A stretch of 64,000 nt of DNA from Trypanosoma brucei (taxonomy: Eukaryota). The number at the start of each line of letters is the position of its first letter. Within the stretch, counting starts at the first letter, position 1. Positions 13,901 to 61,800 of this stretch are shown here, in pieces. The position numbers were made by a program, and so were the translations under genes. Under the pieces are notes generated by a model. It was not told the origin of the DNA and made no database searches. It saw only the letters and a list, made by a program, of their open reading frames with translations. The stretch covers positions 800,001 through 864,000 of the forward strand of contig CP000070.1 of NCBI GenBank assembly GCA_000002445.1, given 5' to 3'.

Positions 13901-16900
13901 TGTGGATTACCTTGTGACACCGAGTCAGAGACTTGAATGGGAGCAGCAGGGTCTTCCAAAAGACAATCTCTGTGCGGAAAACGCAATGATTCTTCACCGT
14001 AGTCGACGATACCCCCTACTCATTGACCCCAGCGGGGTTGCCACCGCATTTCTGCAGAAGAAACACAAAGATGGAACGATGCGTACCACAAGTTTCACGA
14101 AGAGCGATTATCTCAAGCAATTGGACATGGCCATCCGGTTCGGTTACGCACTTATCATAGAAGACGCGGAGTTCATGGACCCCATTATTGGACCACTTCT
14201 AAAGAACGAGATGCGACGTGTGGGAGGGCGCACGATGACGCGACTTGGTGGCCGTGAGGTGGAAACTACTTCTTCCTTTAGTTTGATTCTCATCACGCGT
14301 GATTCGCACTATCAACCACCTCCCGGAATAGCAGGAAGGGTCTGCCTTGTTAATTTTGCCGTGACACTGTCTTCGCTTGAGTCACAGTGCCGTCATCGGT
14401 TGCTGCTTCACGAACGGGCGGATGTCGATGAGCAGCGCGCCCGCGTCCTGAAGGTTCGGGAGGAGTATTCTGTTCGTGTGCGGGTGTTAGAACAGGAACT
14501 GCTCAAGCTGATTGCGGGAAGTGAAGGAAGTATTCTTGAGAATAATACACTGACTGTTGCACTGGAGCGGCTGAAGGGGGAGACAAAGGCGTTGAAGGAG
14601 GGGATTGTAGAGAGTGATGAATTGATGCGATCCATTACCGCTGTTGAAGAACATTACAAGCCACTTGCAACAGCAGTGTCAAAAGTTTACTTTGTTCTAC
14701 GCTGCTTCTCCCAGTTGCATGGATTGTATCAGTACAGTGTGAAGTTCATCTTCCGCGTATTGAATGACGCCCTTGACCAGCTACCCCCGCCTAGCAATTC
14801 CAACGGCGCGCAGCAGGAAGAAGCGCCCGCGGAAAAAAAAGAGGAGGATGCAGCGCGACTGCAAGTACTCACGAGACATGTGTTTTATCTTCTATATCAC
14901 CGCGCGCGGCGGGGCATGTTCGCGCAGGATCATCTTGTTCTTGCCACCGCCCTGGGTAAGGCGCGTAGTGGCATCGCCGATCCCATCGGGCAACAACTAA
15001 CTATTGAAGAGTGGAATCTCTTCGAAAGTGCGTTAGGCGGGCCGGTGGCAAGCACAGGCGTGTCAATACCAGCTGAAAGTATAAAAGGTGCTGACAGGCT
15101 TGACCAACTCCCCAAGATACTGTCTGGGTGCCGTGTGTGCTCGCCGTCTTCAGCCGCGGTTCTCGCGGAGCTGCTGAAGCTACCACTGTTTGAGCAAGTG
15201 CGGGTTTCACTGAATAACCCGGAGCATGGGGAGGCATGGAGAGCATACTTTGCAGCGGTGGAGCCCTACGCCGAGACGATACCTCCCTTTTCCCGAAAAG
15301 TCAAGAATTTCAGTGCCGATGACGCCAATTGCAGCAGTGTAGGTGGAAGCCATGCTGTGGGGCCCACACGCCGTGCGTTTATAACGGCTTTGCTACTTCT
15401 GCACACCCGCCGTGACGCTTTTGTGCCCGCTGCCTCAGAGTTCCTACGACTCTTTTTTGATGGTGCAGACGTGGCAGTGGGAGACGGGCGTGGCAACTGT
15501 GGGGAAAGCGGTTATCGTGCTATCGCTGGCCATGACGGTGCTAAAGGTGGCATGGGCGACTTTGATTCCTTCTTTTCGGCGGAAGTTCTTGATCTTGTTG
15601 CAATTCAGAAGGAGTTGACTAACACAACCCCACTCATATTAGTGGCGAATGCGGGGAGTGACCCAACGGTGTCGCTGGAGGCAGTGGCGAGTGCAATGAA
15701 TGTTCAACTACATACTGCCGTTATGGGCTCTGCAGACAGTACCGAAGCAGCTGAACGGTTCCTCACGACAGCAACGGTGGATGGTGCATGGGTACTACTA
15801 AAGAATATTCACATTGACCGCGCCTTCGCCGACGTTGTTGTGAGGCACTTGCATCGCGTTTTTGCCGGGGATCAGGTACATGAGGGCTTCCGCCTCATTT
15901 TATCCATGGAGGCGAAGGCACAGCATGTGGTTGGCAACCTTGGGGAGAGAGGTTGTGGTGGAGACGTAATAAATGCACGGTCCCCGCTCGACCTTCCTGT
16001 CAGTTTGGTGGAGTCATCAATCGTTGTGGTGTACGAACCACCTCCAGGTATGAAGGCTTCTCTTCTTCAAACTATTGGATCTCTGAGGGCCCCAACCCAA
16101 CAAGCTCCTTATTCTGCCGACATGGTGCGCATTTATCTTACTGCTGCTTGGTTTCACGCAGTGGTTATGGAACGGCTCCTATATGTTCCACTGGGTTGGA
16201 GCACGCGCTATGAAATCAACGACACGGAATTCTGGCACACATTGCAAGCCGTCAACCGTTGGGTGATGACGACGGAGAGCACCTCTGGAGGAAACACTGT
16301 TGGTGATATTGAGGGAAATCAAGTCTGTAGCGCTAACCGCGAGCATTTCCCATGGTTAGCCCTTCAAACCATAATCGGCACGGCTCTCTACGGCGGTAAA
16401 TTGAGCAACGACTTTGACCAATTTCTTCTAAATTCGTTCTGCACGCAGCTGTTTAGCCCCATTATTTTTGAGGACGACAAGTTTTTCGCATTGCTGGAGG
16501 GCCTATGCGTAAATCAGAAGCTTCGACTCCCTTCCATGGACACATTGAATGACGTTTTGGCGTGGGTAAAGTCCCTGCCGGACCCGCAGCCGCTTCGTTG
16601 GGCACGGTTGCCGGCAAGCGCCTCGCGGTTAATGTTAGAAAAGCAGGCGGTTGCTATGTTGGAACGGCTTGCGATTCTGCGATTTGTTGGTGAGAAAGAA
16701 CATAGTGGCCGCAGCATTGTTGACGGTTGCGCCGCCTACTCGGAGGAGTCAACCATACCGCGCTGTCTAACCGAAATGCAGTGGGCGCAGAAGGTTCGGC
16801 TGTTTTGTTCCTCATGGCGCTCCTCGCTAGAACGACTTGTTCCCGCAGGACAGGTCGTGTCGGCACAATCAGCAGAAACGCCGTCAGGGGGGAGGAGCAG

Positions 16901-17789
16901 CGGAGCAGAACGGTGTAAAGAGGAGCCTGTTTCGGTAATGGTCGACAGGGAATATGCCTTTGCAATGGAACGCCTTCATGAGGTTCTTGATGACCTACAG
17001 GTGGTAGAAAACATTTGCTGCGGAACAGGTAAACCAACGGCAGATCAGCGTGCTCTCATCGACTGGCTGTTAAAGGACCAAATCCCGCCGATGTGGGCAC
17101 GGTCCTATTCTTCTCACACAGCAGTGGCAGAACAGTGGATGATAGATTTTGCGCGTCGGGTTTCTCATGCTTTATATCTACGCGGGGCCATACAGAGGGA
17201 GTCGGGTGGCGCTGTATGCCTCAACCTCGGTCTTCTTTTCTGGCCTGAGGCCTTCGTTACTACAACGAAGCAGCAGACAGCCCGCAGACAGAGTCAGCCA
17301 TTGGAGCAACTGCAAATTCAACTTGACCTCATGCCGGAGGAAGATGTGCGAGCACGAGCTGCTAAAGTTGTAAAGGAGGATGATGTCTGGCATATTGTGG
17401 GTCTGACGCTATTTTCAGCCTCCCTCAAGAAGTGTGACACGGCTAGTGGTGGTGCCGGCTATACGTGTGTATTACTGCCTGACTCATCCACGGCACCTTC
17501 AACGCCTGTTGGGGCGGTGATGAGGTGGAGGCCGGTTGTGTTGTCGAGAACCACCACCGCACCAGACGCTGGTTGCTGTATGGCCCCTGCAGCAAAATCA
17601 TCGGTTCTGACACGGCTAGCCTCGCGTGATAAGAATTCTAATTGCCTCATTGTACCACTATACGCGAGCGATCTACGCAGAGCACTGCTGCAAGTTGTGG
17701 AACTGAGGGTGGACATTAAAAACACGCCAATGCACGCATGGTATGAACGGGGGACATGCCTTGTAGCCTGGTCGATGGAAGCCTACTAG
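1917..17789 (+). CDS. Cytoplasmic dynein heavy chain (dynein-1-like), about 5290 aa
   Basis: Single 15.9-kb ORF whose first ATG is at 1917 (the track start at 1911 is a TTG). Four AAA+ Walker A P-loops occur in order: GPAGTGKTE near nt 8464-8490, GPSGTGKT near 9376-9400, GPPGSGKT near 10800-10825 and GASGVGKT near 11841-11867. The AAA1 context LGGSPVGPAGTGKTETVKSLG...CQVGAWGCFDEFNRLEE matches cytoplasmic dynein. A long coiled-coil stalk and C-terminal domain follow. Confidence 0.95.
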   Translation: MMRQEKDKQLCLTADELLASDVVDCISSMMRSATKPQVREALQGVEHEKNGTALHLVVCEYTPTQNLNNEEAATTTCVVAAEDLTTVFFRLMATVSRGVTSPKYMGTGPMTEGSKNVDGGSSMETEGAAALPRVTRCVFITSASGGNSAEDIRNAPSSPRPAPLTLSQLNVHAMEMDQPLGDLQSLLQRVYEPVLRQRREDALRYNLQEFVNSMQCRYHFLTRVNLMQFVHPKLLTVCSVNPTADLHELVGLLHEEGDDVDLDDVFAIWSPCRNLLNVAFEADTADDGNAARPQVINLSEVVGGAPHHGSCIGDNTSRNHGNNNNGGVLEEVSYWQEVRQWINHIRRQLRSREWRLAHYLLRHRVPTSYEREYELHSKLAHSYEQHAKGVLQLLPHINDVNDITTFLVNALRIIEAAARPGAYPRKRCTHFVNCVVHNIMEQFVALADGLDVLHIQPAEKQLQKIGEMMKAIVELQRCLVDGVLSARIDQRDVEGTTVTETRNSSVAGQWCTEVKNLSGFGRCSLLLERMKQLKDFLNEHFHYYRTLAQTFAEGGGSGSTTTSFCRHLAEAYSRFTADVVERGCLWDVSPTGAGKYQRIRDSYSSRVSRIDDRLALHVGISLSNEQERDTYNVTTSTVKANTSTEAKTSDPRRPARGRVDAPTAGGSPLYRAYSCFCVFRREKVLAVLASFRTALREQIDREINDICEEYFGKESCPHIVRATVARLGVTEDVGRMLWERSLQRQLETHMERREEISEHGWRQLLLLRTLEHRWCLNESLARFFGARLQDLVVEGFAAGSEVHGTAYALAFLSLVHSKNELRWSRDPHIQSARQYLDENSPQSLEKARLRLVLLRKGSSWGSKQSEPWDVLNFRDSIAQKLNEHVERWCNIVQSKFLHVDMVEETMAMKGPFLRLSYVERGVGTAGGNSDKNNNFHRNNEGNIDGVSRGEQVLVPNIPQEMYAFLRDFYTLESVQLQEKHKQLFGNIRCFFLKNEARFRIANSFRDLTRVFEEAVGDEEELMAHLITDEYAQVYGCLVDGAKLTWLEEDKLLEFIQRLSCRVYNFCSAASSVRTAVDDVERILQQLHSQTFAAQSIVEKVEKLCGIVKQLGSEGSSREWYVQRIQPRLDAALLLQLQAHLHRWTVEFLSMGRDPRFLDPASCTEEYKLRPLRIRMRVLFKGITLATPEAACRYHWLNILNNSFAWLHAIPALHSSFRRSNHQHPTATPLFGGGSVVEVTAETVYGRLVDCLSSEVLAEPMTAIDKSIQEAFDVEKQWRRGQQLLNLEVGVLQQKLGDDLVKWEEALRHIREFADTLMNHTQPSTLLGGILIVASDAQKELGRKLDNMTQYINSRYREVVSKHLELCHRRITEERTDVEKCDVINSIDDACMFICELPTIYTKLEETGRRIAPLVAAEEYLKNQGLSLPDSGVCVKKVKEEHQAYKDLIARKVKAVELRRPFLRENAKQKGKGLQDDVAELEKSLAELDKQIQLRERQDKQHLEELADSMQERFYDIQKQILVLEKQHDRLTLLCKVLGIQPVDEVRLQSVASRTENLRWVFGHLLEVCRKLNRLSQTPFSEVDPQRLHEDIISLQAEVQEFPPGVRGHPAHNELVQLIEERLAARWIIHELSSRAMMPVVRAERHWSLLRSKLGTQWKLEELTVGDIWRSDPMTRAKIYYEVLDVARGEHRLETKLEQITAFWNNFEFNTTIYKKKHVLIRGWDAVFAQLSDDIDTLQGFHLSPFYSASHIAASVTEWESRLNLLLKVLEVLMGVQRRWVHLDGLFSSNEDIYQQLSSEGMQFDRVTWELWNLMPYRSSPFGSTETAADLENVVVRTQDFLEEKRLLSSLERVDGQLTRVQRALNRYLDRQRRLFPRFFYVGDDDLLETLGNSNNATLIAKHLPKMFTALARLIVKDMGANGQGSAGSAAADLHIVGFACEEGEEVATNRSIRLEGRALHLTLNEVEIVMTQTLRQLTVSAAASLADAGCVTTEWIEAFPLQVVCLAFQVWWAQLQEQALATWKAQQKREPSLAVSRMVSLLDQLALEVTAVGVTPSVRRASEELITLAVYQRDVSRLIELKNVTAAEDFEWMRILRLYVVAPDTYSKKGDAATDVGRPRKSGVVLANEVDYPEVHCRMADASLIHGFEYIGWYRRLVQTPLTDRCYLAMTQALHTRLGGSPVGPAGTGKTETVKSLGAQLGRHVVVFNCTDTFDFSAIGRILMGLCQVGAWGCFDEFNRLEECVLSAVAQQIRSIQEALRGDLHSVNLSRQQVPLKTNVALFITMNPDFADRSQLPGNLKQLFRTVTMVAPDREAIAEVMLFAQGFRTAESLSRKVVPLFDLCREQLSRQSHYDFGLRALKSVLVIAGEAKHADCKRNAVHVPETASSATAVEDDSNVNSRECELMLGSLINNIVPRLISEDVILFYPLLRDFFPGRPVPDVFESLLRSTIEEVCQDTHYTPTPAWVEKIYQLYRTRKTRHGLMLVGPSGTGKTSCWKTLLRVMARLSTQEGHNDFDEGDLASPSRRSRGRPLEAHAYVIDPKAMTKAELFGVFEATTREWKDGIFTDILRRIVNNSLDTNSTQQQHWIIFDGDVDPLWVENLNSLLDDSKIYTLPNGERLSLPPSVRIVFEVQDLRYATPATVSRCGMVWFSHGTVPVSCLLNRHLTTFLRAPMIDKRGGKRIVEVCDDHEEMQSRLCGGHFTLHRAAASSGTTTLASTQRELTTSDGDVRTSRENNKAHDSLTEDALNRSARNSENVPESPPPRTPHSFVSAERDILELQVFMVGVWTTAFAKGGLLERAFEIIHTERYRGQGIMEHNDLQILRSVQSLLLDGIWSMWQVREKWGALPTERVVRSYAEKLLNYAVFWGFGAALNNELRRQLLDDIGFQLLGQPRDLTLMDVEPDPVHGTWRTTRERVQPVDVDPEDVGFSDVIIPTVDACRNRTLLEAWITGGDAVILCGPPGSGKTILVTSLLRDSFTHESVFLNFSSGTRPENIIRALEQYCSVHNHAVHGPIMTPTSGKRLLLFCDEVNLPALDQYGTQPVVQFLRQLVERKGYYRSRDNVWVTVEGVQVIGACNPPTDKGRVSLSHRFLRWAPVLFVDFPTEESLHVIYSSYCRAMLSFSSRLQRYHPKCLAAAMVDVYTASQSRFNTWQQPHYVYSPRELTRWIRALRGAILSWSDQQRCELTVEELVQLAIHEGLRIFQDRLVQNEEREWAHRKVVECFARHFTDVTSSPAQPPLLFSSIVNGVYMKQTKSELVQYVEEKVRTFCEGEGDTELVVLDTMVDHVVRIDRVLRQPSGHMVLVGASGVGKTIITRLVAWMNGMSVFRIDVNRGYQLADYERDLREVLRRAGCGLERICFIFDDSNAMETGFLEYINALLPSGEIPGLFDGDKWAKLMDDIRASVEEQQSLKATSGTTQHLPRVLQHHQHEREGNELHNSARTSLFDRSSTMNRRDFGAPMTGGGYDFDRHPLLLNETAGPMLTSDYIDITSEQVLYRWFVNNVRRNLHVVFVTDPSTKEFADRVVTSPALFNRCTINWLGEWDRTTRAQLAQKLTQNMDVMFSCRESFSGSEDTSRKALTEALSAIHEATEEVNSTARQRNANSGTFITPRHFSDLLQQLKLLYEEKKGRSMEQLTHLRSGLAKLATTSEEVGQQQTQLREHEVLLDERSAKAQAMLERIVSETERTKQEKQEAEQLRQQLKEEEDLILADRARVEQQLSEAAPALREAEEGLNSIKQEYLREMRAYTTPPTMVKRVLETVLVVMGERRAGEWDVIKHYVRRDDFIASVKAFQARDVTEEAVQTVRGMLQEDGFTYEAAMRASKAAGPLLQWVTAQINYAIVYAAVQPLRSRIDQITITQGAKQAQLERTETEISTLEMSLQQLKEDYQSMAEEIATCKSTMGVIASRCDRATKLLQQLLEERDRWGAESLGFDSEVSVLLGNCILAAASLTYFGYFDEYTRQSLLLPVWVQQLKNFKIRCTEEHSSGFVDYLVTPSQRLEWEQQGLPKDNLCAENAMILHRSRRYPLLIDPSGVATAFLQKKHKDGTMRTTSFTKSDYLKQLDMAIRFGYALIIEDAEFMDPIIGPLLKNEMRRVGGRTMTRLGGREVETTSSFSLILITRDSHYQPPPGIAGRVCLVNFAVTLSSLESQCRHRLLLHERADVDEQRARVLKVREEYSVRVRVLEQELLKLIAGSEGSILENNTLTVALERLKGETKALKEGIVESDELMRSITAVEEHYKPLATAVSKVYFVLRCFSQLHGLYQYSVKFIFRVLNDALDQLPPPSNSNGAQQEEAPAEKKEEDAARLQVLTRHVFYLLYHRARRGMFAQDHLVLATALGKARSGIADPIGQQLTIEEWNLFESALGGPVASTGVSIPAESIKGADRLDQLPKILSGCRVCSPSSAAVLAELLKLPLFEQVRVSLNNPEHGEAWRAYFAAVEPYAETIPPFSRKVKNFSADDANCSSVGGSHAVGPTRRAFITALLLLHTRRDAFVPAASEFLRLFFDGADVAVGDGRGNCGESGYRAIAGHDGAKGGMGDFDSFFSAEVLDLVAIQKELTNTTPLILVANAGSDPTVSLEAVASAMNVQLHTAVMGSADSTEAAERFLTTATVDGAWVLLKNIHIDRAFADVVVRHLHRVFAGDQVHEGFRLILSMEAKAQHVVGNLGERGCGGDVINARSPLDLPVSLVESSIVVVYEPPPGMKASLLQTIGSLRAPTQQAPYSADMVRIYLTAAWFHAVVMERLLYVPLGWSTRYEINDTEFWHTLQAVNRWVMTTESTSGGNTVGDIEGNQVCSANREHFPWLALQTIIGTALYGGKLSNDFDQFLLNSFCTQLFSPIIFEDDKFFALLEGLCVNQKLRLPSMDTLNDVLAWVKSLPDPQPLRWARLPASASRLMLEKQAVAMLERLAILRFVGEKEHSGRSIVDGCAAYSEESTIPRCLTEMQWAQKVRLFCSSWRSSLERLVPAGQVVSAQSAETPSGGRSSGAERCKEEPVSVMVDREYAFAMERLHEVLDDLQVVENICCGTGKPTADQRALIDWLLKDQIPPMWARSYSSHTAVAEQWMIDFARRVSHALYLRGAIQRESGGAVCLNLGLLFWPEAFVTTTKQQTARRQSQPLEQLQIQLDLMPEEDVRARAAKVVKEDDVWHIVGLTLFSASLKKCDTASGGAGYTCVLLPDSSTAPSTPVGAVMRWRPVVLSRTTTAPDAGCCMAPAAKSSVLTRLASRDKNSNCLIVPLYASDLRRALLQVVELRVDIKNTPMHAWYERGTCLVAWSMEAY

Positions 17790-34317: not shown

Positions 34318-34809
34318 ATGCTGCGCTCAACTCTGACCTCACTGAACACGTTTCTCACAAGCTCCGTCGCCACCCCACCGATATCTGTAATTAGAACGGG
34401 GCCGAAATGGTGGGCGGATCCCGAGCGCATGGTACGGCAGAAACTCATGTACTTCACGTTAGGGGTCGATCAGCTTCCACTGCGACGAACGGCGGTCATA
34501 CAGCGAGACCTGCAACGCTTCCATATGTGCAAACCGCCTCCCCGTGTTGGGGACTCAACGGGCTACAAACGCTCCCGGGCAGCTCAACTTAACACTTGGT
34601 ATCGCCGCATCCAGTACCAGGAGTATCACATGCAGCATCTCTTCACCAGGCATGTGTGGGGACTGTTGCGTGTGTACCCGGGGAACACTACGAAGATACA
34701 AGGCAAGGCAGATGATGGCTACGTGGGGTACGATTCGGTTCCGTTCCACCGATACAATCGGGCTCCTCTCCCGTTCCCCGCACGGGAACTTTACGAGCGG
34801 AGGAAATAG
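34318..34809 (+). CDS. Hypothetical small protein (163 aa); N-terminus resembles a mitochondrial presequence (MLRSTLTSLNTFLTSS)
   Basis: ATG-initiated ORF and the last gene of the plus-strand array before the strand-switch region. No recognisable domain. Coding status is uncertain because a 109-aa ORF overlaps it in another frame. Confidence 0.35.
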   Translation: MLRSTLTSLNTFLTSSVATPPISVIRTGPKWWADPERMVRQKLMYFTLGVDQLPLRRTAVIQRDLQRFHMCKPPPRVGDSTGYKRSRAAQLNTWYRRIQYQEYHMQHLFTRHVWGLLRVYPGNTTKIQGKADDGYVGYDSVPFHRYNRAPLPFPARELYERRK

Positions 34810-36328
34810 TCGAAAGGCATGTTGTATACGGAAGGACGGAGGGAGGGAGTTACAGTGGAAGAACGTCTTTTAAGAAGTGTGAACGTTTATCGCGCGTGCT
34901 TGGGGATGAGAGAAGTTCCTTGTGCATTGTCAATTTGTCTTGTACGTGGGGATGCTGCTGTCACACGCTCTTTTTCTCCACCTTCTAAGAAAGGAGTACC
35001 ACCGATAGGATTTTAGGATGAAGGAGTGCTGGAGGTGCCTAAACGAATTAAATAGCTTAGTAATATGAGGAAGGGAAGGAACACCTTAAATGTTCACGAA
35101 TCACCACCGGGGCACAAAGCCATAGCCGCTACCCACAAATCACGCTCAACGCGCCTCTAACGACAAAGCGAAGGGGTGCTGCAAACGGCTGGCGATAAGT
35201 GGAAATCACAACTACTATTGGGGCCGGCGTTGTGGGTTTTTTCAGTGTGCTTTCGCGTTGTGATGACAATGAGTTCCACTACCATTCACCAACCATCCAC
35301 AAAAGAGGGACGATACGCGGAGTCCCAAAATGAGGAGGACTAATGCGCGATCACTCTCCTCCTCGCGTTTTCGGAAGGGGCGAGGAAAAACTACTCTCAT
35401 AGACAGTTTTCAGCGCCGTCAAACCATGCCGGCGCAGCCGCGGAAACTTCCTAAGGTAACATCTTTCCTCTCCTCCTCCCCCATTTTCCAGAGCAGCCGT
35501 GCGCCTCCTCAGTGACGAGAAGAAAAAAACACCGTCAGACATGGGAACCTCTCTTGCCCAAAGACCGATGTAGATCTGTGACCTACGGCATGCCGTTTAC
35601 CTCCACCAAAAGTGACAAAATCACACCGTGAAATCCACTTTTTTTTTTTTCGACGGCGCTAAGCTACCCCCAGAAGCCAGCCGACCCGACTGACAGACAA
35701 CCACCAGCGAAACATGACCCCTCCTCTGCATCTTAGAAGTCACCTCCATTTCCAGTGCAATTCTTACCGTGCGAGAGAACGAAAGGAACTAGGACCACCA
35801 TTTGCAAAAATGGATCGCCCAAAGCACGAACAGCTTCGACCCAGCTTGCGGGTGGGTTAGGATAGTTGCAATTCCTTCTTTTGGACTATCATCTAAAGCG
35901 CACTAAAACAAAGATTCGGGGGAAGTGAAAACCCACGTCGTGACAGGTCGTTATTAACCTTAACTCTACAACTGTCGTTGCCTTAACCAGTAGGGTTAGT
36001 CCTGTCTCCTTTTATGGTTGGCATTATTCGCTTCTTCTTTTGTTGGGTAGCTAAATTTAAAAAAAAATCTCCGGAGTTTAGCGCAGTTGGTTATTACAGT
36101 TTTCCTTTACACCCCGCTCCATTTAATTCGATTTCCTAGTGTCCGGGTGTCGCCTGCCGAACGTGCATCTGTCCCTAGCTCTCCCCCCCCCCTCTCGCTG
36201 GAAACCTATGTTAGTCTCATCCCCTTATCCCCTCCCCCGAAATGTGTTTTTATTCTCTCTTTTTCCTTCCCCCTCCGTAATATTAATCAACAATACGAAG
36301 CAGGACGGTTTCGGCGGTAACATTCCCT
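34810..36328. terminator. Convergent strand-switch region: inferred RNA pol II transcription termination zone between the plus- and minus-strand polycistronic units
   Basis: Every confident gene below 34.8 kb is on the plus strand and every one above 36.3 kb is on the minus strand. The interval has no long ORF or recognisable domain. I scanned it for a tRNA and found none. In trypanosomatids such regions are marked by base J and histone H3.V, which is established knowledge, not visible here. Confidence 0.6.
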
Positions 36329-37990
36329 TCAAAGCATTCGCAACAATAGAACTGCGGAACAAAGTGCAGCGGCACGAACACCCGAATGTGCTGCCGGATT
36401 GGACTCCGCTCTCATGACAGGTCTTCGCGCCGGTTCTGCAGAATAGTTGGATTTCAGTCGTACCTCCTCTTGTCCCCTTGAGGTGGATTCTTCGTTCACT
36501 CTCCTCGACAACTCCAAACTGTTCAGAATCTCCCCGATCAGTTCCTCGTGAAGCTGGTCATTAGTGAGTTCTGCCTCTTTGTGCCCTATGCATTTCGTCA
36601 ATTCATCCGCGGTAGTTTTTATTTTTTCCATAACCGCATTTTTTGCTTCTTCGAAACGCGCAAACAGGCGGATGACATCCCCAAATATACTCACTTTATT
36701 GGGATCTTCAGTCCACCGCACTGCACCGTAGGAAGTGACGTCACCGTACTCTCCCCCCTTTACATTTAGTTTGCCTTCCACACTTGATGCGAAATTCATC
36801 ACTCCACCACCCCACGTGAAGCTGTGACTCAATGACCCACCTTTTAATAAACCGTCTGTTGCCGTCCTCATCAAGTTGCAACCCCTGTCTTCATTTCGTT
36901 CAATGATGCTCTCCGCACCCAAGCTACTGAAGGAAATGGATGATAGCGCTTCGTGGAGTTGCAAGTTTTTCTCTGCCGACTTCGTTACATGTGAATCCTC
37001 GATTTTGTAAAGGGTTTCAGGTCCAATTGTTCCACGAAAACATTCTTGCAACTTGTCGTGCACCGCTGGCCTGCTCCCTCCCACGCTTATGCAAAACTGC
37101 GACGTCGTGCGTGCCGCCTGTGCAAATGCAAAAATCCACTCTTCCAGTCTTCCGGCTGCTAACCCAGCGGCGGCTGCTGCTAGCGCCGATGCATTCCTCA
37201 TTTCCTCTAACTCCTGCTGGAATGTAAACTCATTCTTCAATACTGTTTTCAAGAGTGTCCTGATGTCTTTACAATCTTTCTCACTAGAAGGTACGCTGTT
37301 TCGCATTACCGATAACTGCAACTGCGCGCTTTTGATCTTCAAATCTGACAGTTTCTTCATAACCGCAGCACTCCCGCTGTTTACTCTGTGTGCTACCCCT
37401 TTAAGATATGTCGATAACTCACACACTTTATTAGCGGCTGTCGCGTTTAGTGCATTCCTTTCATAATAATTTGCACGTGTTTCTTTTCCCAACAGCGCCA
37501 ACAGCACGAACCAAAACCTCATTTTGTTCTCTTTATTTAATTATACTTGAGCTTTCACCTTCGTTACTGAGTAAAAACTAAATCACTCGTGCTATTCTTG
37601 ACACAGATTACCATTGTGGTGACAGTCCGGGAGAATACATTCTCAGTCCCATTTTGCTTTGTCCTACCAAACTCTCATTATAATAAACACCACTGCCTCA
37701 CACGCGTAGGTAGCAGCTACGTCCCCCCAACACACACACACACACACAACATTCCCCTCAATTGCTCACTTGAAAACAAATAGCAACAGTAATAACACAC
37801 ACACCGCAACAAATTGTACCTCAAATACTTGTTTCCTTCCCTACATCCGAACCATCTTATCCAGCCTCCACTCGACACAGTGTTTTGAAGGGAATAAAAA
37901 CCACTTCCAGGATATTGCTAACCAACAACCCTCCTTCTCGTTAATTAACGCCCTTTTCAACCGATTCTCTTTCGGTGTAGATGATACCGA
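35773..37990. repeat. Copy A of a roughly 2.2-kb tandem duplication carrying the surface-protein gene and its flanks
   Basis: 35773-37990 and 38158-40373 are near-identical by direct reading, apart from one replaced segment of about 80-90 bp and a 1-bp difference in a C-run. They are separated by a unique spacer of about 167 bp (37991-38157). Confidence 0.9.
36329..37522 (-). CDS. GPI-anchored, alanine-rich, predicted helical surface protein resembling the VSG / haptoglobin-hemoglobin-receptor (HpHbR/GARP-type) group; copy A, intact
   Basis: 397 aa. Has an N-terminal signal peptide (MRFWFVLLALLGKETRA), six spaced Cys, Ala-rich helical segments and N-glycosylation sequons. The C-terminus is ..AAHS|GVRAAALCSAVLLLRML, a Ser followed by a 17-residue hydrophobic GPI signal. 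Family assignment is inferred from architecture only. Confidence 0.7.
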   Translation of the reverse strand: MRFWFVLLALLGKETRANYYERNALNATAANKVCELSTYLKGVAHRVNSGSAAVMKKLSDLKIKSAQLQLSVMRNSVPSSEKDCKDIRTLLKTVLKNEFTFQQELEEMRNASALAAAAAGLAAGRLEEWIFAFAQAARTTSQFCISVGGSRPAVHDKLQECFRGTIGPETLYKIEDSHVTKSAEKNLQLHEALSSISFSSLGAESIIERNEDRGCNLMRTATDGLLKGGSLSHSFTWGGGVMNFASSVEGKLNVKGGEYGDVTSYGAVRWTEDPNKVSIFGDVIRLFARFEEAKNAVMEKIKTTADELTKCIGHKEAELTNDQLHEELIGEILNSLELSRRVNEESTSRGQEEVRLKSNYSAEPARRPVMRAESNPAAHSGVRAAALCSAVLLLRML

Positions 37991-38157
37991 TCATCCCTTG
38001 CAGCTTCATACCACCCTACCCTTCATGGCAGCGCCTTGTCGCTTACTTCTAGCTCTGCGTCCGTGTATTATAACCAAGCGGTAGGTAAAACCAACAACCA
38101 CCAAAAAGATAAGAAAAATAATCCTCATTTAAAACCCCCAAAGTTGTACTTTCCTCA

Positions 38158-40373
38158 ATAAACTAGGACCACCATTTGCAAAAATGGATCGCCCAAAGGA
38201 CGAACAGCTTCGACCCAGCTTGCGGGTGGGTTAGGATAGTTGCAATTCCTTCTTTTGGACTATCATCTAAAGCGTACTAAAACAAAGATTCGGGAGAAGT
38301 GAAAACCCACGTCGTGACAGGTCGTTATTAACCTTAACTCTACAACTGTCGTTGCCTTAACCAGTAGGGTTAGTCCTGTCTCCTTTTATGGTTGGCATTA
38401 TTCGCTTCTTCTTTTGTTGGGTAGCTAAATTTAAAAAAAAAATCTCCGGAGTTTAGCGCAGTTGGTTATTACAGTTTTCCTTTACACCCCGCTCCATTTA
38501 ATTCGATTTCCTAGTGTCCGGGTGTCGCCTGCCGAACGTGCATCTGTCCCTAGCTCTCCCCCCCCCTCTCGCTGGAAACCTATGTTAGTCTCATCCCCTT
38601 ATCCCCTCCCCCGAAATGTGTTTTTATTCTCTCTTTTTCCTTCCCCCTCCGTAACATTAATCAACAATACGAAGCAGGACGGTTTCGGCGGTAACATTCC
38701 CTTCAAAGCATTCGCAACAATAGAACTGCGGAACAAAGTGCAGCGGCACGAACACCCGAATGTGCTGCCGGATTGGACTCCGCTCTCATGACAGGTCTTC
38801 GCGCCGGTTCTGCAGAATAGTTGGATTTCAGTCGTACCTCCTGTCACTTTATTCCTAACCGCCCAAACCCCGCACTGAGGTCCCACTTCACAGCAACTCC
38901 AGATAGTTTTGTATCGCCTTGAATTGCCGTTCGTGAAGCTGGTCATTAGTGAGTTCTGCCTCTTTGTGCCCTATGCATTTCGTCAATTCATCCGCGGTAG
39001 TTTTTATTTTTTCCATAACCGCATTTTTTGCTTCTTCGAAACGCGCAAACAGGCGGATGACATCCCCAAATATACTCACTTTATTGGGATCTTCAGTCCA
39101 CCGCACTGCACCGTAGGAAGTGACGTCACCGTACTCTCCCCCCTTTACATTTAGTTTGCCTTCCACACTTGATGCGAAATTCATCACTCCACCACCCCAC
39201 GTGAAGCTGTGACTCAATGACCCACCTTTTAATAAACCGTCTGTTGCCGTCCTCATCAAGTTGCAACCCCTGTCTTCATTTCGTTCAATGATGCTCTCCG
39301 CACCCAAGCTACTGAAGGAAATGGATGATAGCGCTTCGTGGAGTTGCAAGTTTTTCTCTGCCGACTTCGTTACATGTGAATCCTCGATTTTGTAAAGGGT
39401 TTCAGGTCCAATTGTTCCACGAAAACATTCTTGCAACTTGTCGTGCACCGCTGGCCTGCTCCCTCCCACGCTTATGCAAAACTGCGACGTCGTGCGTGCC
39501 GCCTGTGCAAATGCAAAAATCCACTCTTCCAGTCTTCCGGCTGCTAACCCAGCGGCGGCTGCTGCTAGCGCCGATGCATTCCTCATTTCCTCTAACTCCT
39601 GCTGGAATGTAAACTCATTCTTCAATACTGTTTTCAAGAGTGTCCTGATGTCTTTACAATCTTTCTCACTAGAAGGTACGCTGTTTCGCATTACCGATAA
39701 CTGCAACTGCGCGCTTTTGATCTTCAAATCTGACAGTTTCTTCATAACCGCAGCACTCCCGCTGTTTACTCTGTGTGCTACCCCTTTAAGATATGTCGAT
39801 AACTCACACACTTTATTAGCGGCTGTCGCGTTTAGTGCATTCCTTTCATAATAATTTGCACGTGTTTCTTTTCCCAACAGCGCCAACAGCACGAACCAAA
39901 ACCTCATTTTGTTCTCTTTATTTAATTATACTTGAGCTTTCACCTTCGTTACTGAGTAAAAACTAAATCACTCGTGCTATTCTTGACACAGATTACCATT
40001 GTGGTGACAGTCCGGGAGAATACATTCTCAGTCCCATTTTGCTTTGTCCTACCAAACTCTCATTATAATAAACACCACTGCCTCACACGCGTAGGTAGCA
40101 GCTACGTCCCCCCAACACACACACACACACACAACATTCCCCTCAATTGCTCACTTGAAAACAAATAGCAACAGTAATAACACACACACCGCAACAAATT
40201 GTACCTCAAATACTTGTTTCCTTCCCTACATCCGAACCATCTTATCCAGCCTCCACTCGACACAGTGTTTTGAAGGGAATAAAAACCACTTCCAGGATAT
40301 TGCTAACCAACAACCCTCCTTCTCGTTAATTAACGCCCTTTTCAACCGATTCTCTTTCGGTGTAGATGATACC
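38158..40373. repeat. Copy B of the roughly 2.2-kb tandem duplication
   Basis: Same alignment as copy A. Similarity ends at about 40373, where gatgataccg is followed by cgactacc rather than the atcatccc that follows it in copy A (about 37990). Confidence 0.9.
38888..39907 (-). CDS. Copy B of the surface-protein gene: same first 324 codons, then a divergent 3' segment that terminates early (..DQLHERQFKAIQNYLELL*) and lacks the GPI signal; possible pseudogene or soluble variant
   Basis: Identical to copy A from the ATG through ..LTNDQLHE. The copy-A segment at 36480-36557 is replaced in copy B by unrelated sequence at about 38869-38957, which gives a stop at 38888. The GPI-signal coding sequence is still present and intact downstream of the stop, at about 38705-38868, but is untranslated. 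Confidence 0.5.
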   Translation of the reverse strand: MRFWFVLLALLGKETRANYYERNALNATAANKVCELSTYLKGVAHRVNSGSAAVMKKLSDLKIKSAQLQLSVMRNSVPSSEKDCKDIRTLLKTVLKNEFTFQQELEEMRNASALAAAAAGLAAGRLEEWIFAFAQAARTTSQFCISVGGSRPAVHDKLQECFRGTIGPETLYKIEDSHVTKSAEKNLQLHEALSSISFSSLGAESIIERNEDRGCNLMRTATDGLLKGGSLSHSFTWGGGVMNFASSVEGKLNVKGGEYGDVTSYGAVRWTEDPNKVSIFGDVIRLFARFEEAKNAVMEKIKTTADELTKCIGHKEAELTNDQLHERQFKAIQNYLELL

Positions 40374-41228
40374 GCGACTACCGTTCGCCACAACTGTTGT
40401 GGTTGCTTCAAGTGGTGGTGAGCAAAGCGTTAAGGTATCACTACAATTTGAGGAGAACAAGAGGTCATCTTTTATTATACTGTGCGCTCCAACAGCGCTT
40501 CCTTGTACACAAATTATGTTTGCTAATTTCCTGTCCTTGAGGAGCTCCCTATTCCACAACGCGACACCAGTCTCAGTACAACTTTCCCTTCTTGAAGGTA
40601 CGTTTGCGATTGCGTCACGGGAACACGAAAGTAGCAACAACATTTTTTTTGCTTCACTCCTCCAGTGGACCTATTTGGTACTAATGCTTTTTGTTAACAC
40701 GTTGTCAAAAGGTTGCGGCATCCCATACCCCGAAGCACGCATCTGCATGATCCCCTAACCAACGGCGTACGAATAAGGCGATGCATTTGTTAACGCATGT
40801 TCGTTTGCATGTTTCCTCGCACTTCTGGGAGCGTGAGGTTGACGCGCCTCACCCGATCACTGCCGCACTATCAGCGCAGACGCAGTAACTCTAAAGGAGG
40901 AAGTGTGCCAACACATGTGTGAGGAAAGAATGGCAGTTCTTAAAGCTATGCCCCTAGTAGCTACAGTGGGGCCTCACACCTCCCGTGTGGTCAATGTTTT
41001 GTGCTTCGCTTCTGCAGTTGAATCACACTTGTCCAGTAAAAAAAAAACGGACGGAAGAAAGGAAGTAGATTGAGGACAGCACGGAGAGTGTAACAAAGAA
41101 ATTCCACAGACGTAGACACGCCTTCTTTTCAGCGCAAATCCCTCGGCAAGGGATTCCTACCTTCAGTGCATGCCCAACACAAACAATAACAAGTTACAAC
41201 ACCACCGGAAACAAAAAAAAACGTCCAC

Positions 41229-43652
41229 TCAACTCTCAACAAGAAAAACCATTTTTGCCTCAGGGGTATCTTGAATGCGAAAGTGTGCACGGTTCGCCTC
41301 AACCAATTTCAGCACTCCACCATAGTGTCGATTAGCCGCTTGCTGAACGCTAAGCGAAGCCCAGAGGAGCAGCTGCGAGGCCTCAACTCCTCGCGCCGGT
41401 ATCAAACTTCGCACCGCTTGCACGGCTTCCTCACGAGATAAAAAGTCGTTCTCTGCGAATTCCGCCTCCAAGTCGAGCGACTCACCAGAACATTCAGCTG
41501 AGACGTTAGCCTGGGAAGAGAGAGTAGAAATGGAAGGCGACCGCGCATCTCCAGACGTTCTCGGTGTAATGGGTGCCTCACCAAAAATATTGCCAGATCG
41601 CCCCCCACTAACTTTCTTCACTTTCCGCATTAAGAAAACTCCGGGCGACGTCTCTTTGCAAACGAAAAGATCAGGAAACAACTGCAAGACAGTGACGATA
41701 CGCGGTGGCAACACAGCCCGCATCGCAGGACTTGCGCACTGAAGGAAGAAGGCAGCTGTGCATGGTTCGTCATCGGGGGCCACATAGTGAAACACAACAG
41801 CCAAATCGCGCGGCGTTTGGTACGGATTCTCCTCACGGATGATGACACGTGTCGCCATATCGCCCGGTGCGGGTTCGGGCTCCTGTGAAGAAAGTGGGTC
41901 GGAGAGGTCTACGCGAGCAATGAAGTTCTCCCCAACACGAAATATGCGGGGATGACGATTCAGAATGTGCATCATCCCCTCAAAACCACCAACCATCACT
42001 TTCTCTTCTTCCGTAAGGCGAACATAGACATAGTGAGACCGATCCCACGTCGTGCATACGCGTCCCATGAGAATTATAAGACCTCGAACGTCTTCCGGAA
42101 ATTGCTCGAAGTCTTCAATGAAATGACCCTTCCAGCGGTCGCTGTTCGCCCCAATGCGCCTTCTCACAAGAGGCGTGTCCGTGTACCTTAGTTGAACTAC
42201 TTCGAATTGGGCAGGGTGATTCTTAACGCAGCCAATCAATTCGTTATGAGTTAAGTTTTTCTTTGTGTAGCGCTGCATCAGTAGGGACGAAGGAACAAAG
42301 TATCCGGGACAAACGCGCGAAACAAACTTCAGGATCGTCGCAAGCTGCTGAGACTCACCAGCCATGTTCGTAACTTCACCTTCCGCATTGAGAGGAATCA
42401 AACTATTGGCTTCCCCCTTTGCAATCTTGAGCTGTAACTGTTCGTGGGCTTCTTCGGGCGTTAGCCCATGCGCCTCAGGGTGCAACACTATGCTACGCCG
42501 GATCTCCGTCGTTCCTGCGATGCTACGGAGTTCAAAGTAGAAAGGCTGACGACGAAACCACTGCAACGTGGAGGAAATACGAATATGCTTCTTTTTTACC
42601 GCCGGTGGTAAGTTAAGGTTTCCAAAGTTTCCCCAGTTAACAGGAACGTACTTCAGGATTTCATACACATCTTCACGCGTGGGCACATTAGATGCAGCGG
42701 CCCAACCTCCATAGGCGTTCATGGAATTTGCGCCACGTGTTTGCGGCTGCGGTGACACGAAACGTGGAGGCTTTGACTCCCCAGCAAGTCGAGTGCAAAT
42801 GTACCTGTCGTGCAACACCCAGAATTCTCCCGCTGCGCGCGGCGTGCGGAGCAAACTAAGAAAGTCTCCGTACTTAACCGTATGGACAGTACCGCTGAGT
42901 TCACAAACTCGAGAGCCCTCCCGCAAGAGAAGGGAATAGGCTTCGCTGAGGGGTTTGTAATTAGGCTCATCCCTCTCACGCCGCCCAAGCACATCGTCGC
43001 GTAGGACGTCCAGGAGCTTTTCGGCGGCGCCCACCAGTCCCCTGTGCGTTCCTTCCGACGCATGCGACCCGATACGTTCGCCCGCTTCATTAACCGTCTC
43101 AGATTCGTCCTTATCGACATCAGCAAGGTAACTCTTCGGTTCGGCGGTAAGTTCCACATGACGAAGTCCATGAGCGTCCTCCACGAGCCGAAGGAGGAGG
43201 CATTTCTGCAACCATTCCTCGACACCCATTCCGCTGCCGAAGATATTGTCACGGCTTACTTTTGGCAGCTGCTCAACAAACACCTTAAGTCCTACACGAC
43301 CACTGGCATGCTGACGTGCAACTACCATTGCTGCAGCACGCTCCGCCACGGGGCGAGTATTAAAAATTGCAGTGAACTCATCTGGTGGAATTGCTTTAAA
43401 CCCGGGTTCTGAAAACGACAAAGCAAAGGGTTCATCACACCCTTCTGGTGAATCGGGTCCTGAGGATCGGAACCGCAGAGAAGCGAAGGGGCTGGCAGCG
43501 GGAATGTCACCGCGGGGTTTCCTCTTTCTTTCGTGAATAAGTTGGTGGTAGTGGACACGATTCTGGAGAATAAACTGCTGCCCTAGCAGCGAGCTGCCCC
43601 AAGGCAACGGTGTTGTGGAGAAAAGGAACTGAATTCGAAGGCGACGATGCAT
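41229..43652 (-). CDS. Conserved hypothetical protein (about 807 aa)
   Basis: Long uninterrupted minus-strand ORF. The first ATG is at 43652, since the track start at 43655 is a TTG. No motif I can name. Confidence 0.55.
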   Translation of the reverse strand: MHRRLRIQFLFSTTPLPWGSSLLGQQFILQNRVHYHQLIHERKRKPRGDIPAASPFASLRFRSSGPDSPEGCDEPFALSFSEPGFKAIPPDEFTAIFNTRPVAERAAAMVVARQHASGRVGLKVFVEQLPKVSRDNIFGSGMGVEEWLQKCLLLRLVEDAHGLRHVELTAEPKSYLADVDKDESETVNEAGERIGSHASEGTHRGLVGAAEKLLDVLRDDVLGRRERDEPNYKPLSEAYSLLLREGSRVCELSGTVHTVKYGDFLSLLRTPRAAGEFWVLHDRYICTRLAGESKPPRFVSPQPQTRGANSMNAYGGWAAASNVPTREDVYEILKYVPVNWGNFGNLNLPPAVKKKHIRISSTLQWFRRQPFYFELRSIAGTTEIRRSIVLHPEAHGLTPEEAHEQLQLKIAKGEANSLIPLNAEGEVTNMAGESQQLATILKFVSRVCPGYFVPSSLLMQRYTKKNLTHNELIGCVKNHPAQFEVVQLRYTDTPLVRRRIGANSDRWKGHFIEDFEQFPEDVRGLIILMGRVCTTWDRSHYVYVRLTEEEKVMVGGFEGMMHILNRHPRIFRVGENFIARVDLSDPLSSQEPEPAPGDMATRVIIREENPYQTPRDLAVVFHYVAPDDEPCTAAFFLQCASPAMRAVLPPRIVTVLQLFPDLFVCKETSPGVFLMRKVKKVSGGRSGNIFGEAPITPRTSGDARSPSISTLSSQANVSAECSGESLDLEAEFAENDFLSREEAVQAVRSLIPARGVEASQLLLWASLSVQQAANRHYGGVLKLVEANRAHFRIQDTPEAKMVFLVES

Positions 43653-44382
43653 CAATGCACCGTGGTCGGATCCTCGCTATAGTTGCCGTACTCCAGAAGC
43701 AAGAGATTAAAGGATGGAGAAAAAGCCCTCTAAACTCCCTTTTAGTAATTACACATTCCACTAGGAACCAGTAGTTGTGACGTTTCAGAGAGTTGTTGTG
43801 AAGATCTCCTAATCACACTTGATCATGTTACCACAGTTAAACACTAGATACTAACGTAACGGAAAGCGAGAACTGGCAAAATAAAATGGAGAACGCTGAA
43901 CGAGAGGGACAGCCCCTGCTACAGACACGACCCTTACCCTCCTCAGCGCTCGGACCTACCGCAACCTCAGTTTCTCACCAAACATACACACACAGACACA
44001 CACAGCGGTGATCGATCCTGCAGTGGCCAGTGAGCATAATCGGACAACGCACGGGTACCGCTCTTGTGAAGGGTCGCGTCACATACGAAGCTCCCCATCT
44101 CCTCCTTGCTTATGGCCCCTTCGGCCACTACAATGGCGCCGGTGCGCGACCCTCTCCGTGAGCCTGTTTGCAGCAAAGATGTCGACAGCGAGCACAACAG
44201 TTCGTACAACACCGCACCCGCGGGGGGGGGGGAACGATAATGACAACAATCTCCACATGCATTCTCTTCATCGGTGGAATTCACAGCGAATCAATTCCTG
44301 CGATGTTAATAACGAATACACCCAAAAGTACTGCGTAATCAGTGCTGTTTTTGGCATACGGAACTGATGTTTACTTCAACCC

Positions 44383-58887: not shown

Positions 58888-61800
58888 TCAATGGTGCGCC
58901 CATGGCCCTCCCAAATGCGTTGTTGGGCAACCGGTTGCGTCGCCCTCGTCCTCATCGTCTTCACCTTCCTCAACAGAGCGCAAAAGCGATATCTCACGCA
59001 AAAGCTCCTTTGCACTCGTGGCAGAAACCTGACAACCACGAATGCGCGAGTCCAGATCCGTCATCAGTCCACCTATGTTGCGATTTAGCTCATCCACCAC
59101 ATCGTCGTGTTGTCTCCCTTTAGACTGTAATTCGACCATAAGTGCCTCTTTTTCACGCTTCAAACGCTCAAGCTGATGGCGCATCGAGCTAATGATATCT
59201 GTCCCACCCACGGCCAGATTGCTTGCAGACGGTACAGTCACCGCTGAGGTGGTGGAATTGCCAGTCTCTCCGAGATGCTCTGACGATGTCCAGGGGAGGG
59301 GAACGGGCATACCACCCTGTAGTTCCTCGATTCTGGCCTCCAGTTGTTGCATGACTGCCTCCACCTCACGCATCTCGTCGTCCTTAGCGTCTTGCAGGTC
59401 AAAGAGTTCCTGTTCACGGGCCTCCAGGGCCATCAACGCCGCCTTCTCCGCTGCTCGGGCTCCTTCAAGGACATTAACAAACTCATCGAGTTTACCAATG
59501 GTGTCAGTGTATTCAAACCCCTTCTCGTCCAACTCAAGCAACAGTGCAGCAATTTTTCTGTTAAGTGCATCAAGATCCTCTTTGTGAGTGATCTCCCGCT
59601 GTTCTAACTCTTCCCTCAGGGCAGCGTTCTCTTCGCTAAGTTTCTTAACCTCCTGTTCAAGTTCACCTACGAGATAAACGCCACTCATTAACTCTTCAAC
59701 CTTTCCACGGGCCACCTCCACGTGCGAACTTCGTGCCTTTTCAAGCATGTTGAACAGTGAGAGAAGCATCTCGTCACGGAACTTTTTGTCCCTATCTTGG
59801 GTGCAACGAAGTTCAAGTAACTCTTCCTCACGGGCAAAAAGCTCACTGCGCACCGTGCACTCAGCCTGACGAGCCTCATCCAATAGTACGACCATCTCCT
59901 CCATATTCTCCAGCATTTCGGTGTGTTCTGTGGCCCGCTCCTCAAGTTCGTCAAGTAAGTCACCTTCACGTTTCGCGCGAATACGGTCACGGTTGAGGAA
60001 CCCAACGACCAATAAGCACTGCAGCGAAGACAAAGAAGAGCGTTCAATAACCAAACGAGACAAGACCTCATCAACGAAAACACCCTGCTCATCAACCATG
60101 ACACCGCAGGCACGCCGCAAGAATGAAGACATCGTCAAATTGCCGCCACCAGCATCGTTAGTCCCAATACTACTGCCCAAAAGCAGCCGCTGCGTTTCCC
60201 TGAATGGGTAATGCTGAAGCCGTTGAGCAATTTCCGAAGGATGAATGCTTGAAGGATGGGTGACATCAAATTCAACCACACGACCACTCGGAGTGAACGT
60301 TACATTACTCACACAATCCCTGTAGACACGACATGCATTAGCAGCATCAACAACAACAGCACAACGTAACTCTTCCGGTTTATTCTTCAGCAACTCATCT
60401 AACCTCTCACCTTGAAGTTGAACACACTGAGAACTTACCATGCAATCTCCCTCCATCGAAGCCATCCACCGAGAATCATGTTTGCGCTCCTCCTCGCCGC
60501 CACGCGAAGGCTCATTCAACGCTTCCTCTAAGTCGTCCAGAGCGTTCGACATCAACACAGAAGGGCGATCATTGTGCGAAGAAGCGTCCACCACATCGAC
60601 ACCACTCCTCAGTTTTTTCAAAGCATCTACAGCTTTACGAAGCCCATCGCTCTGAGATACCAATTCATTGGTCTTGCGCTCATTCACAGCCTGCAGTTCC
60701 ATCACCTGCTCCTCCATATCACGAAGTCGTCTTTGTTGCTTGTCCAACTCATCTACCCTCAGTTCATCAGTGCCCCGCAATTGTTCATTCTGTGTCAGAA
60801 ATTCTTTCAGACGGTCACCAAGTTCCTGAAGTAGTTCGCCCTGAACAACAAGTTCATGAGATTTAATATCAAGTTCCTTCCGCAACTCGTCGTTTTCCGA
60901 AGATATCTCAGAGAGCTTCAGACGCAATTCCTTCACATCAGATAAAAGACATTCGATTTCTTTAGAATTTTCATCATCAACACTACGGAGATCGATATTT
61001 TCCCGCTTCACAAGAATCAACTCATTTTTGATAACACCAATACCATCACCGTCACCAGAAACATCCACATCAGCACTCTTCTCCTTCAAAAGATATTCAC
61101 CATCAGAATCAATTTTCATAGCACCGTCCTTCGCATCCCGAGAAACATCACGATCATCATTACGTAAAGAAAAAAGTTCGTTACTTCGTCTCAGTTCCTC
61201 ATTCTCAGTGCGTAGTTCAGCAAGTTGCTCCTCCATCTCATGAAGTTTCTCATTCTGCACATCAAGTTCACGTGCCTTGTCCCCTTCAGTATTGCGAAGC
61301 TCCTCATTCTCAGCGCGTAGTTCAGCAAGTTGCTCTTCCATCTCATGAAGTTTCTCATTCTGCACATCAAGTTCACGTGCCTTGTCACCATCAGTATTGC
61401 GAAGCTCCTCATTTTCAGCGCGTAGTTCAGCAAGTTGCTCCTCCATCTCATGAAGTTTCTCATTCTGCACATCAAGTTCACGTGCCTTGTCACCATCAGT
61501 ATTGCGAAGCTCCTCATTTTCAGCGCGTAGTTCGGCAAGTTGCTCCTCCATCTCATGAAGTTTCTCATTCTGCACATCAAGTTCACGTGCCTTGTCACCA
61601 TCAGTATTGCGAAGCTCCTCATTTTCAGCGCGTAGTTCAGCAAGTTGCTCCTCCATCTCATGAAGTTTCTCATTCTGCACATCAAGTTCACGTGCCTTGT
61701 CACCATCAGTATTGCGAAGCTCCTCATTTTCAGCGCGTAGTTCAGCAAGTTGCTCCTCCATCTCATGAAGTTTCTCATTCTGCACATCAAGTTCACGTGC

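Follow-up and report, generated by a model that had tools for sequence, protein, structure and literature searches.

A 64,000-nt window of Trypanosoma brucei chromosome 7 (positions 800,001 to 864,000 of the forward strand of contig CP000070.1, assembly GCA_000002445.1; all coordinates below are those of the window unless another sequence is named) contains a head-to-tail duplication which, as judged from its sequence, is the annotated chromosome-internal ESAG7/ESAG6 pair, a non-telomeric copy of the transferrin receptor genes. We consider it very probable that this ESAG7-then-ESAG6 pair of strain TREU927 supplies both subunits of a heterodimer of the transferrin-receptor type. In the canonical ESAG6/7 receptor the subunits dimerise via VSG-like helical bundles, and the complex, held in the flagellar pocket by a single glycosylphosphatidylinositol (GPI) anchor, captures transferrin of the host for iron uptake. 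The locus is already annotated and published and does not represent a new surface-protein family; the pair has been described at the chromosome 7 strand-switch region (Jackson et al. 2013).

The upstream gene, the ESAG7-type Tb927.7.3260 (38888..39907, minus strand), encodes a 339-aa protein with a signal peptide and a VSG-like ectodomain, which lacks a GPI signal and ends in RQFKAIQNYLELL directly before the stop codon. The downstream gene, the ESAG6-type Tb927.7.3250 (36329..37522, minus strand), encodes a 397-aa protein with an ESAG6-type C-terminal extension that carries a GPI signal. Both proteins have exact matches in T. b. brucei TREU927 (XP_845949.1 for the 339-aa and XP_845948.1 for the 397-aa protein). 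In a sequence search of PDB chains, the 397-aa protein matched ESAG6 (6soy_A, E = 4.7e-180, residues 1-396/397 on 1-398/399) and the 339-aa protein matched ESAG7 over its full length (6soy_B, E = 3.1e-168, residues 1-337), with no other chain at E<=1e-3 for either protein. Identity was 73-80% to the solved structure and 72-80% to the UniRef ESAG6/ESAG7 clusters. Both open reading frames (ORFs) also match the VSG A-type N-terminal domain of Pfam (PF00913) over residues 21-243 (E ~2e-10), scoring 41.1 and 40.8 bits against a gathering threshold of 22.1, and no further Pfam family was found at E<=0.01 for either of them. The profile search that the preliminary description of this DNA had proposed as a check thus leads to PF00913 and not to a housekeeping family, and its suggestion of a low-abundance surface receptor is borne out by the 6SOY matches, the family being that of the ESAG6/ESAG7 transferrin receptor. 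An error in this identity, namely a wrong reference annotation, is very unlikely.

Residues 1-326 are common to the two proteins and 100% identical, and it is the tails that differ. The 397-aa protein has a signal-like N-terminus, six Cys in its mature part and one more in its tail, and it ends in ...AAHS|GVRAAALCSAVLLLRML, with Ser380 followed by 17 mostly hydrophobic residues (36332..36385, minus strand, as read from the translation). This C-terminal signal, GVRAAALCSAVLLLRML, lines up with its counterpart at the ESAG6 C-terminus in 6soy_A, and Ser380 is the presumed site of GPI attachment in the ESAG6-type protein. The signal-like N-terminus, the six Cys and the Ser with its putative 17-residue GPI signal, all of which had been predicted earlier, are therefore present in the downstream ORF (37522..36329). 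The accompanying claim that each copy is GPI-anchored can hold only for this 397-aa product and fails for the upstream one, which stops after 339 aa within an 88-nt patch. What had been taken for the duplication of one GPI-anchored gene into two equivalent copies is instead a canonical pair, in which the GPI-minus ESAG7-type gene lies upstream and the GPI-plus ESAG6-type gene downstream on the minus strand.

The structure of the repeat was resolved by blastn self-comparison and a repeat search, which place the head-to-tail duplication on the minus strand of TREU927 chromosome 7 at nearly the coordinates at which a 2.2-kb duplication had been proposed. Unit 1 (35787-37989, 2203 nt) and unit 2 (38161-40374, 2214 nt), both on the minus strand, each comprise 467 nt of 5' flank, a coding sequence (ESAG6-type in unit 1, ESAG7-type in unit 2) and a 3' region, and are separated by an unduplicated spacer (37990-38160, no strand assigned) of 171 nt, close to the earlier figure of ~167 bp. 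The similarity between the units is far beyond chance. On the minus strand, a block of 1444 nt (36546-37989 = 38931-40374), which spans the 5' untranslated region (467 nt before the ATG) and codons 1 to ~326, is 100% identical between them and is probably a gene-conversion tract; a second shared block of 683 nt (35787-36468 versus 38161-38842) is 99.1% identical by blastn. Wedged between the two blocks are non-homologous patches, delimited on the minus strand from the sequence and a three-way alignment: an ESAG6-specific patch of 77 nt (36469-36545), in which the frame stays open into the GPI-signal region, and an ESAG7-specific patch of 88 nt (38843-38930), which brings an early stop codon. 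Because the latter reads RQFKAIQNYLELL followed by the stop, the upstream gene encodes only 339 aa and has no GPI signal. Past this stop lies an untranslated relic of the ESAG6 C-terminal and GPI-signal coding sequence (38703-38842, minus strand), out of frame with an 11-nt shift. Each unit also carries, ~210 nt 5' of the ATG, a (TG)n microsatellite visible in the sequence and in the alignment (40115-40133 and its twin 37730-37748, minus strand).

The chromosome 7 proteins resemble the ESAG6/7 proteins of the expression sites (PDB 6SOY/6SOZ) in their full-length homology, the ESAG7-then-ESAG6 order, the signal peptide, the VSG A-type fold family and the GPI-plus/GPI-minus distinction of the tails. 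Of the six ectodomain Cys, five have a conserved counterpart in every sequence compared, and the sixth (C311) has one in each full-length sequence. The ESAG7-type C-terminus reads RQFKAIQNYLELL on chromosome 7 and EEFEAIQKYLWFL in expression sites. The pair differs from its expression-site relatives in being chromosome-internal, at a convergent strand-switch region and not at a telomere, and in lacking expression-site promoter-proximal DNA. In expression sites, ESAG6/7 normally lie directly downstream of the promoter (Jackson 2013), which is a promoter of RNA polymerase I (Pol I). We searched the whole window by blastn (word size 7) with positions 100-300 and 400-600 of the ~640-bp promoter-downstream alignment (Young 2008, Additional file 2), and the best result was a 16-nt match (E 0.42). 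As these queries are unmatched in the window, the transposed block would have arrived without the promoter-proximal region.

The heads of the proteins depart further from the canonical receptor, which has two different heads with ESAG6- and ESAG7-type hypervariable loops. The two chromosome 7 heads are identical, both over residues 1-326 and in the loop at residues 199-270 (100% each). Expression-site ESAG6 and ESAG7 share 83-85% over residues 1-326 and only 47-50% in the loop, as compared to ~93% and 92-94%, respectively, when ESAG6 is compared with ESAG6 or ESAG7 with ESAG7. The chromosome 7 sequence is 78% identical to expression-site ESAG6 over residues 1-326 and 60-61% in the loop, and 80-81% and 68%, respectively, to expression-site ESAG7. 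Moreover, the N[LF]T sequon at alignment column 238, present in all expression-site ESAG6/7 compared, and the NGS sequon of expression-site ESAG6 are both missing from the two chromosome 7 proteins, whose heads would carry fewer glycans. Substitutions specific to chromosome 7 include E35, R138-T139-T140 and the loop 226-236. Having identical, ESAG7-leaning heads may have consequences for transferrin binding.

Several other families resemble the pair in some respects. The PAG1/2/4/5 genes (Fam14) are likewise chromosome-internal ESAG6/7 relatives at the ends of transcription units (Jackson 2013), but they form a separate clade that is procyclin-linked and transcribed by Pol I, whereas the window proteins are, to judge by sequence, ESAG6/7 proper. 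The Fam15 genes of T. congolense also form tandem GPI-plus/GPI-minus pairs outside expression sites (Jackson 2013); these differ, in a contrast drawn by description, in being subtelomeric and far more divergent (p = 0.604 among T. congolense genes). The significant PF00913 match ties both window proteins to the A-type N-terminal domain of VSGs, yet ESAG6/7 proteins are not variant antigens: they form a heterodimeric receptor, lack the VSG C-terminal domain and have a low copy number. HpHbR, GARP and BARP share the general layout of signal peptide, elongated helical ectodomain and GPI anchor. At the level of sequence no tie to HpHbR, GARP or BARP was found (Pfam at E<=0.01, PDB chains at E<=1e-3), so that of the VSG/HpHbR/GARP-BARP grouping suggested earlier, the relation to VSG stands (PF00913, E 2e-10) and the rest finds no support at this level.

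To follow the history of the locus we used the 807-aa flanking gene as synteny anchor and measured the gap between it and the convergent 163-aa gene. In TREU927 the gap is 6419 nt and holds the intact ESAG7-type and ESAG6-type pair, whereas in T. vivax (631 nt) and T. cruzi (468 nt) there is no pair and the two flanking genes directly adjoin each other. Relative to these species, the T. brucei lineage has the pair inserted in a convergent strand-switch region that is itself conserved. In T. b. gambiense DAL972 chromosome 7 the gap is 4073 nt, with one ESAG6-type copy (13782-14978 of our sequence L001) that is frameshifted by the loss of 1 nt near codon 40 and the gain of 4 nt at codon 230; in T. 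b. equiperdum IVM-t1 it is 4043 nt, again with one ESAG6-type copy (13761-14952 of L005), in which 1 nt has been inserted at codon 23. In neither assembly was a gene called at this copy. Both loci lack the spacer (37990-38160 in TREU927), and in both the 5' flank of unit 2 is fused to the body of unit 1. The alignment of single-copy with two-copy loci breaks at the (TG)n microsatellite, which in T. b. gambiense (L001 ~13536-13590) exceeds the TREU927 repeat by 36 nt. T. equiperdum OVI, represented by a gapped scaffold, has both the ESAG6-type and the ESAG7-type patches, and its 88-nt ESAG7-type patch is 100% identical to that of the window (L009 15027-15399). Members of the T. brucei group therefore differ in how many copies they carry at this locus and in whether these are intact. 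In T. theileri the syntenic region is a run of N, a 5.3-kb gap (L004 ~12575-17100).

Differences between TREU927 and T. b. gambiense are clustered at codons 4-59, 230-235 and 325-355, with a single change across codons 60-221, and in these clusters the gambiense copy carries expression-site ESAG6 states, for example GSPTRHNLTWGGG and LYEEFIWETIHRLELSKRVSEQ. This pattern suggests patchy gene conversion between the chromosome 7 locus and telomeric ESAG6 genes. Between TREU927 and IVM-t1 we counted 6 synonymous-type and 8 non-synonymous-type differences, from which we roughly estimate a ratio of non-synonymous to synonymous rates (dN/dS) of ~0.4; this hints at constraint, the counts being tiny and too few to decide.

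The pair lies amid core genes (a kinase, ChaC, WD40 proteins, an mS72 homologue, a translation-type GTPase, a dynein heavy chain and the 807-aa conserved hypothetical protein), internally on a 2.2-Mb chromosome and not next to a telomeric expression-site promoter, in agreement with the housekeeping surroundings described before. By ORF orientation the two genes are the last on the minus strand before the convergent plus-strand genes, a terminal position that had also been recognised and that accords with Jackson 2013. Upstream they are flanked by Tb927.7.3270 (41229..43655, minus strand), the 807-aa synteny anchor, and on the convergent side by a 163-aa gene (34318..34809, plus strand) whose product is called mitoribosomal protein mS72 in Leishmania donovani. 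Between this gene and the ESAG6-type stop lies the convergent strand-switch, or termination, zone (34810..36328, no strand assigned), whose edge falls at about window position 36300 according to the distances given by Schulz 2016. Scanned in full for tRNA genes and against Rfam, the window yielded neither a tRNA gene nor an Rfam match, so the termination zone holds no RNA gene of these kinds. At 36001-40000 the GC skew is strongly negative (-0.22 to -0.27) and the GC content lower (0.46) than in the neighbouring sequence, which is consistent with a foreign, expression-site-type composition and with minus-strand coding. A 105-aa ORF without a Pfam match (40326-40643, minus strand) spans the 5' boundary of unit 2; T. 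b. gambiense has a gene call for this ORF (L001 13008-13325), probably a spurious one in intergenic DNA.

Published data allow the expression of the locus to be assessed. In strain 427 (Schulz 2016, PMC4721952, S2 Data), the sense signal of Tb927.7.3250 is log2 -1.90 in the wild type, -2.63 in the J null, -2.42 in the H3.V null and -1.82 in the double null, and the gene is missing from the table of >4-fold changes in that study (S6 Table). In the same double null, antisense signal rises more than 4-fold at the flanking genes Tb927.7.3220 (0.014 to 0.169) and Tb927.7.3270 (0.012 to 0.377). Since this flanking antisense read-through increases in the double null, termination at this convergent site is J/H3.V-dependent. 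The pair itself is not J/H3.V-silenced, its sense signal being very low and unchanged, with the mapping caveats given below. The earlier expectation of low, J/H3.V-sensitive expression was therefore right as to the low level and the dependence of termination, and wrong as to the sense signal, which does not change in the nulls. The supplements of Reynolds 2016, on H3.V, make no mention of Tb927.7.3250 or Tb927.7.3260.

Other studies give a different picture: Telleria 2014 reports a high bloodstream-form value for the chromosome 7 gene IDs (2582 versus 52 reads per kilobase per million, RPKM), and stage-regulated translation has been published for the chromosome 7 ESAG6/7 IDs. With no expression sites in the TREU927 core reference, reads from expression-site ESAG6/7 have, in our judgement, probably inflated such high values, while pipelines that require unique mapping under-count the pair because its copies are identical over 1.4 kb. 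Both data sets are thus confounded, that of Telleria 2014 by cross-mapping and that of Schulz 2016 by multi-mapping between the identical copies.

Taken together, these observations fit a scenario in which an ESAG7/ESAG6 pair was copied out of an expression site and inserted at this site in the T. brucei lineage. The upstream gene would supply a soluble 339-aa subunit without GPI and the downstream gene a 397-aa subunit with a GPI signal. RNA polymerase II (Pol II) would transcribe the two as the last genes of a polycistronic unit, with stage regulation possibly exerted via the shared 3' region. Gene conversion may then have homogenised the two units over their first 1444 nt, and recombination between the units may have left, in other lineages, the single ESAG6-type copy that now appears to be decaying; a collapse of this kind would also have removed the spacer and the ESAG7 patch.

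Whether the TREU927 pair still yields a low-level functional or back-up receptor, or is a relic heading for loss, appears about even. The stronger form of the second view, in which the transposed expression-site genes no longer make a working receptor and the TREU927 ORFs are merely not yet broken, is a serious contender that we rate at somewhat under one half. It draws on the frameshifts in the orthologous single copies of T. b. gambiense and IVM-t1, on the 100% identity of heads that in expression-site ESAG6 and ESAG7 share only 47-50% of loop 199-270, on the loss of the N[LF]T and NGS sequons, on the very low sense signal in Schulz 2016, and on the non-functionality of ESAG6 homodimers as receptors, as reported in a review (Kariuki 2019). 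Against it, both TREU927 ORFs (397 and 339 codons) are intact and keep the ESAG7/ESAG6 tail distinction, the ESAG7-type patch is fully conserved in T. equiperdum OVI, and the rough dN/dS between TREU927 and IVM-t1, for all its tiny counts, hints at constraint.

Much less support remains for a recent simple duplication of one GPI-anchored gene with later truncation of one copy, which we regard as very unlikely. The near-identity of the two shared blocks (100% over 1444 nt, 99.1% over 683 nt) and the single-copy state of two related assemblies, T. b. gambiense and IVM-t1, are what such an event would leave. However, the truncating patch is not a random mutation but encodes an ESAG7-type C-terminus (RQFKAIQNYLELL as compared to the expression-site EEFEAIQKYLWFL), a pair with this patch is already present in T. 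equiperdum OVI, and GPI-minus/GPI-plus pairs are the ancestral arrangement of the family (Jackson 2013). Because the ESAG7-specific patch and the 171-nt unduplicated spacer, missing from the single-copy loci, are hard to derive in this way, a very recent duplication, one of two origins offered in the preliminary description, is less likely, and the other, gene conversion, is favoured in the form of an old ESAG7/ESAG6 pair that has been homogenised.

A miniature Pol I unit with its own expression-site-type promoter is equally improbable: expression-site ESAG6/7 do normally come right after a promoter, procyclin/PAG loci are a known case of Pol I units that lie inside chromosomes, between convergent Pol II units, and 854 nt of unexplained DNA lie between the upstream flanking gene Tb927.7.3270 and unit 2, but the ~640 bp that follows every expression-site promoter is unmatched anywhere in the window, the published ESAG7 chromatin immunoprecipitation fragment of expression sites reaches ~1.6 kb from the start site whereas here the distance from the Tb927.7.3270 stop codon to the ESAG7 ATG is only 1321 nt, and the published sense signal is very low. 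Transcription of the pair by Pol II, as the terminal genes of a polycistronic unit, is accordingly the reading that we infer.

Several points weigh against our interpretation of an expression-site-derived, Pol II-transcribed and gene-converted pair. The published expression values conflict, with 2582 RPKM in bloodstream forms in one study (Telleria 2014) and ~0.27 in another (Schulz 2016), obtained in different strains. The 67-bp core promoter lay outside our search, and a Pol I promoter at 40375-41228 is formally possible. In principle, a consensus artefact of the reference assembly could account for the 100% identity over 1444 nt. Likewise, the single copies of T. b. gambiense and IVM-t1 could in part reflect assembly collapse, and their frameshifts could be sequencing errors; IVM-t1 is a long-read assembly. 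Finally, the synteny comparison, which had been proposed as a way to tell the ancestral copy number, gave no pair in T. vivax and T. cruzi and one copy in T. b. gambiense and IVM-t1, and across these species it does not separate an ancestral from a transposed origin.

Elsewhere in the window, two large genes stand out. One ORF of ~5290 aa (1911-17789, plus strand) codes for a dynein heavy chain whose domains include DHC_N1/N2, AAA_6 to AAA_9, MT stalk and Dynein_C. On the minus strand, 58888-63861 encodes a 1657-aa protein with the FAZ1 conserved domain (Pfam PF23398, E 6e-23), in which a 105-nt (35-aa) repeat recurs almost perfectly (98% matches) in 22 copies at 61196-63526; long ORFs on both strands cover this repeat array.

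The identity of the locus matters for the reading of published data. Since the TREU927 core genome lacks the expression sites, many RNA-seq and proteomic studies report "ESAG6/7" via Tb927.7.3250 and Tb927.7.3260, and such values should be read with the knowledge that the chromosome 7 copies are only ~80% identical to the expression-site copies, are mutually identical over 1.4 kb, and are missing or disrupted in other subspecies. The locus brings nothing new in kind and is of narrow practical relevance; the polymorphism among subspecies and the patches of conversion add a little to the picture of ESAG6/7 evolution. A more speculative proposal, which we consider improbable, is that the pair forms a distinct receptor variant, with identical heads and fewer glycans, made by Pol II independently of the active expression site and serving basal uptake of transferrin or another ligand when no ESAG-containing site is active, from a locus that is polymorphic (intact pair or single pseudogene) and swaps patches with expression-site ESAG6. 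Steverding & Overath 1996 reportedly found an ESAG6/7-derived receptor in cells in which an ESAG-less metacyclic expression site is active. If the proposal is true, the chromosome 7 pair would provide a back-up receptor that could be of use, for instance, in the period directly following transmission, when the active metacyclic expression site lacks ESAGs.

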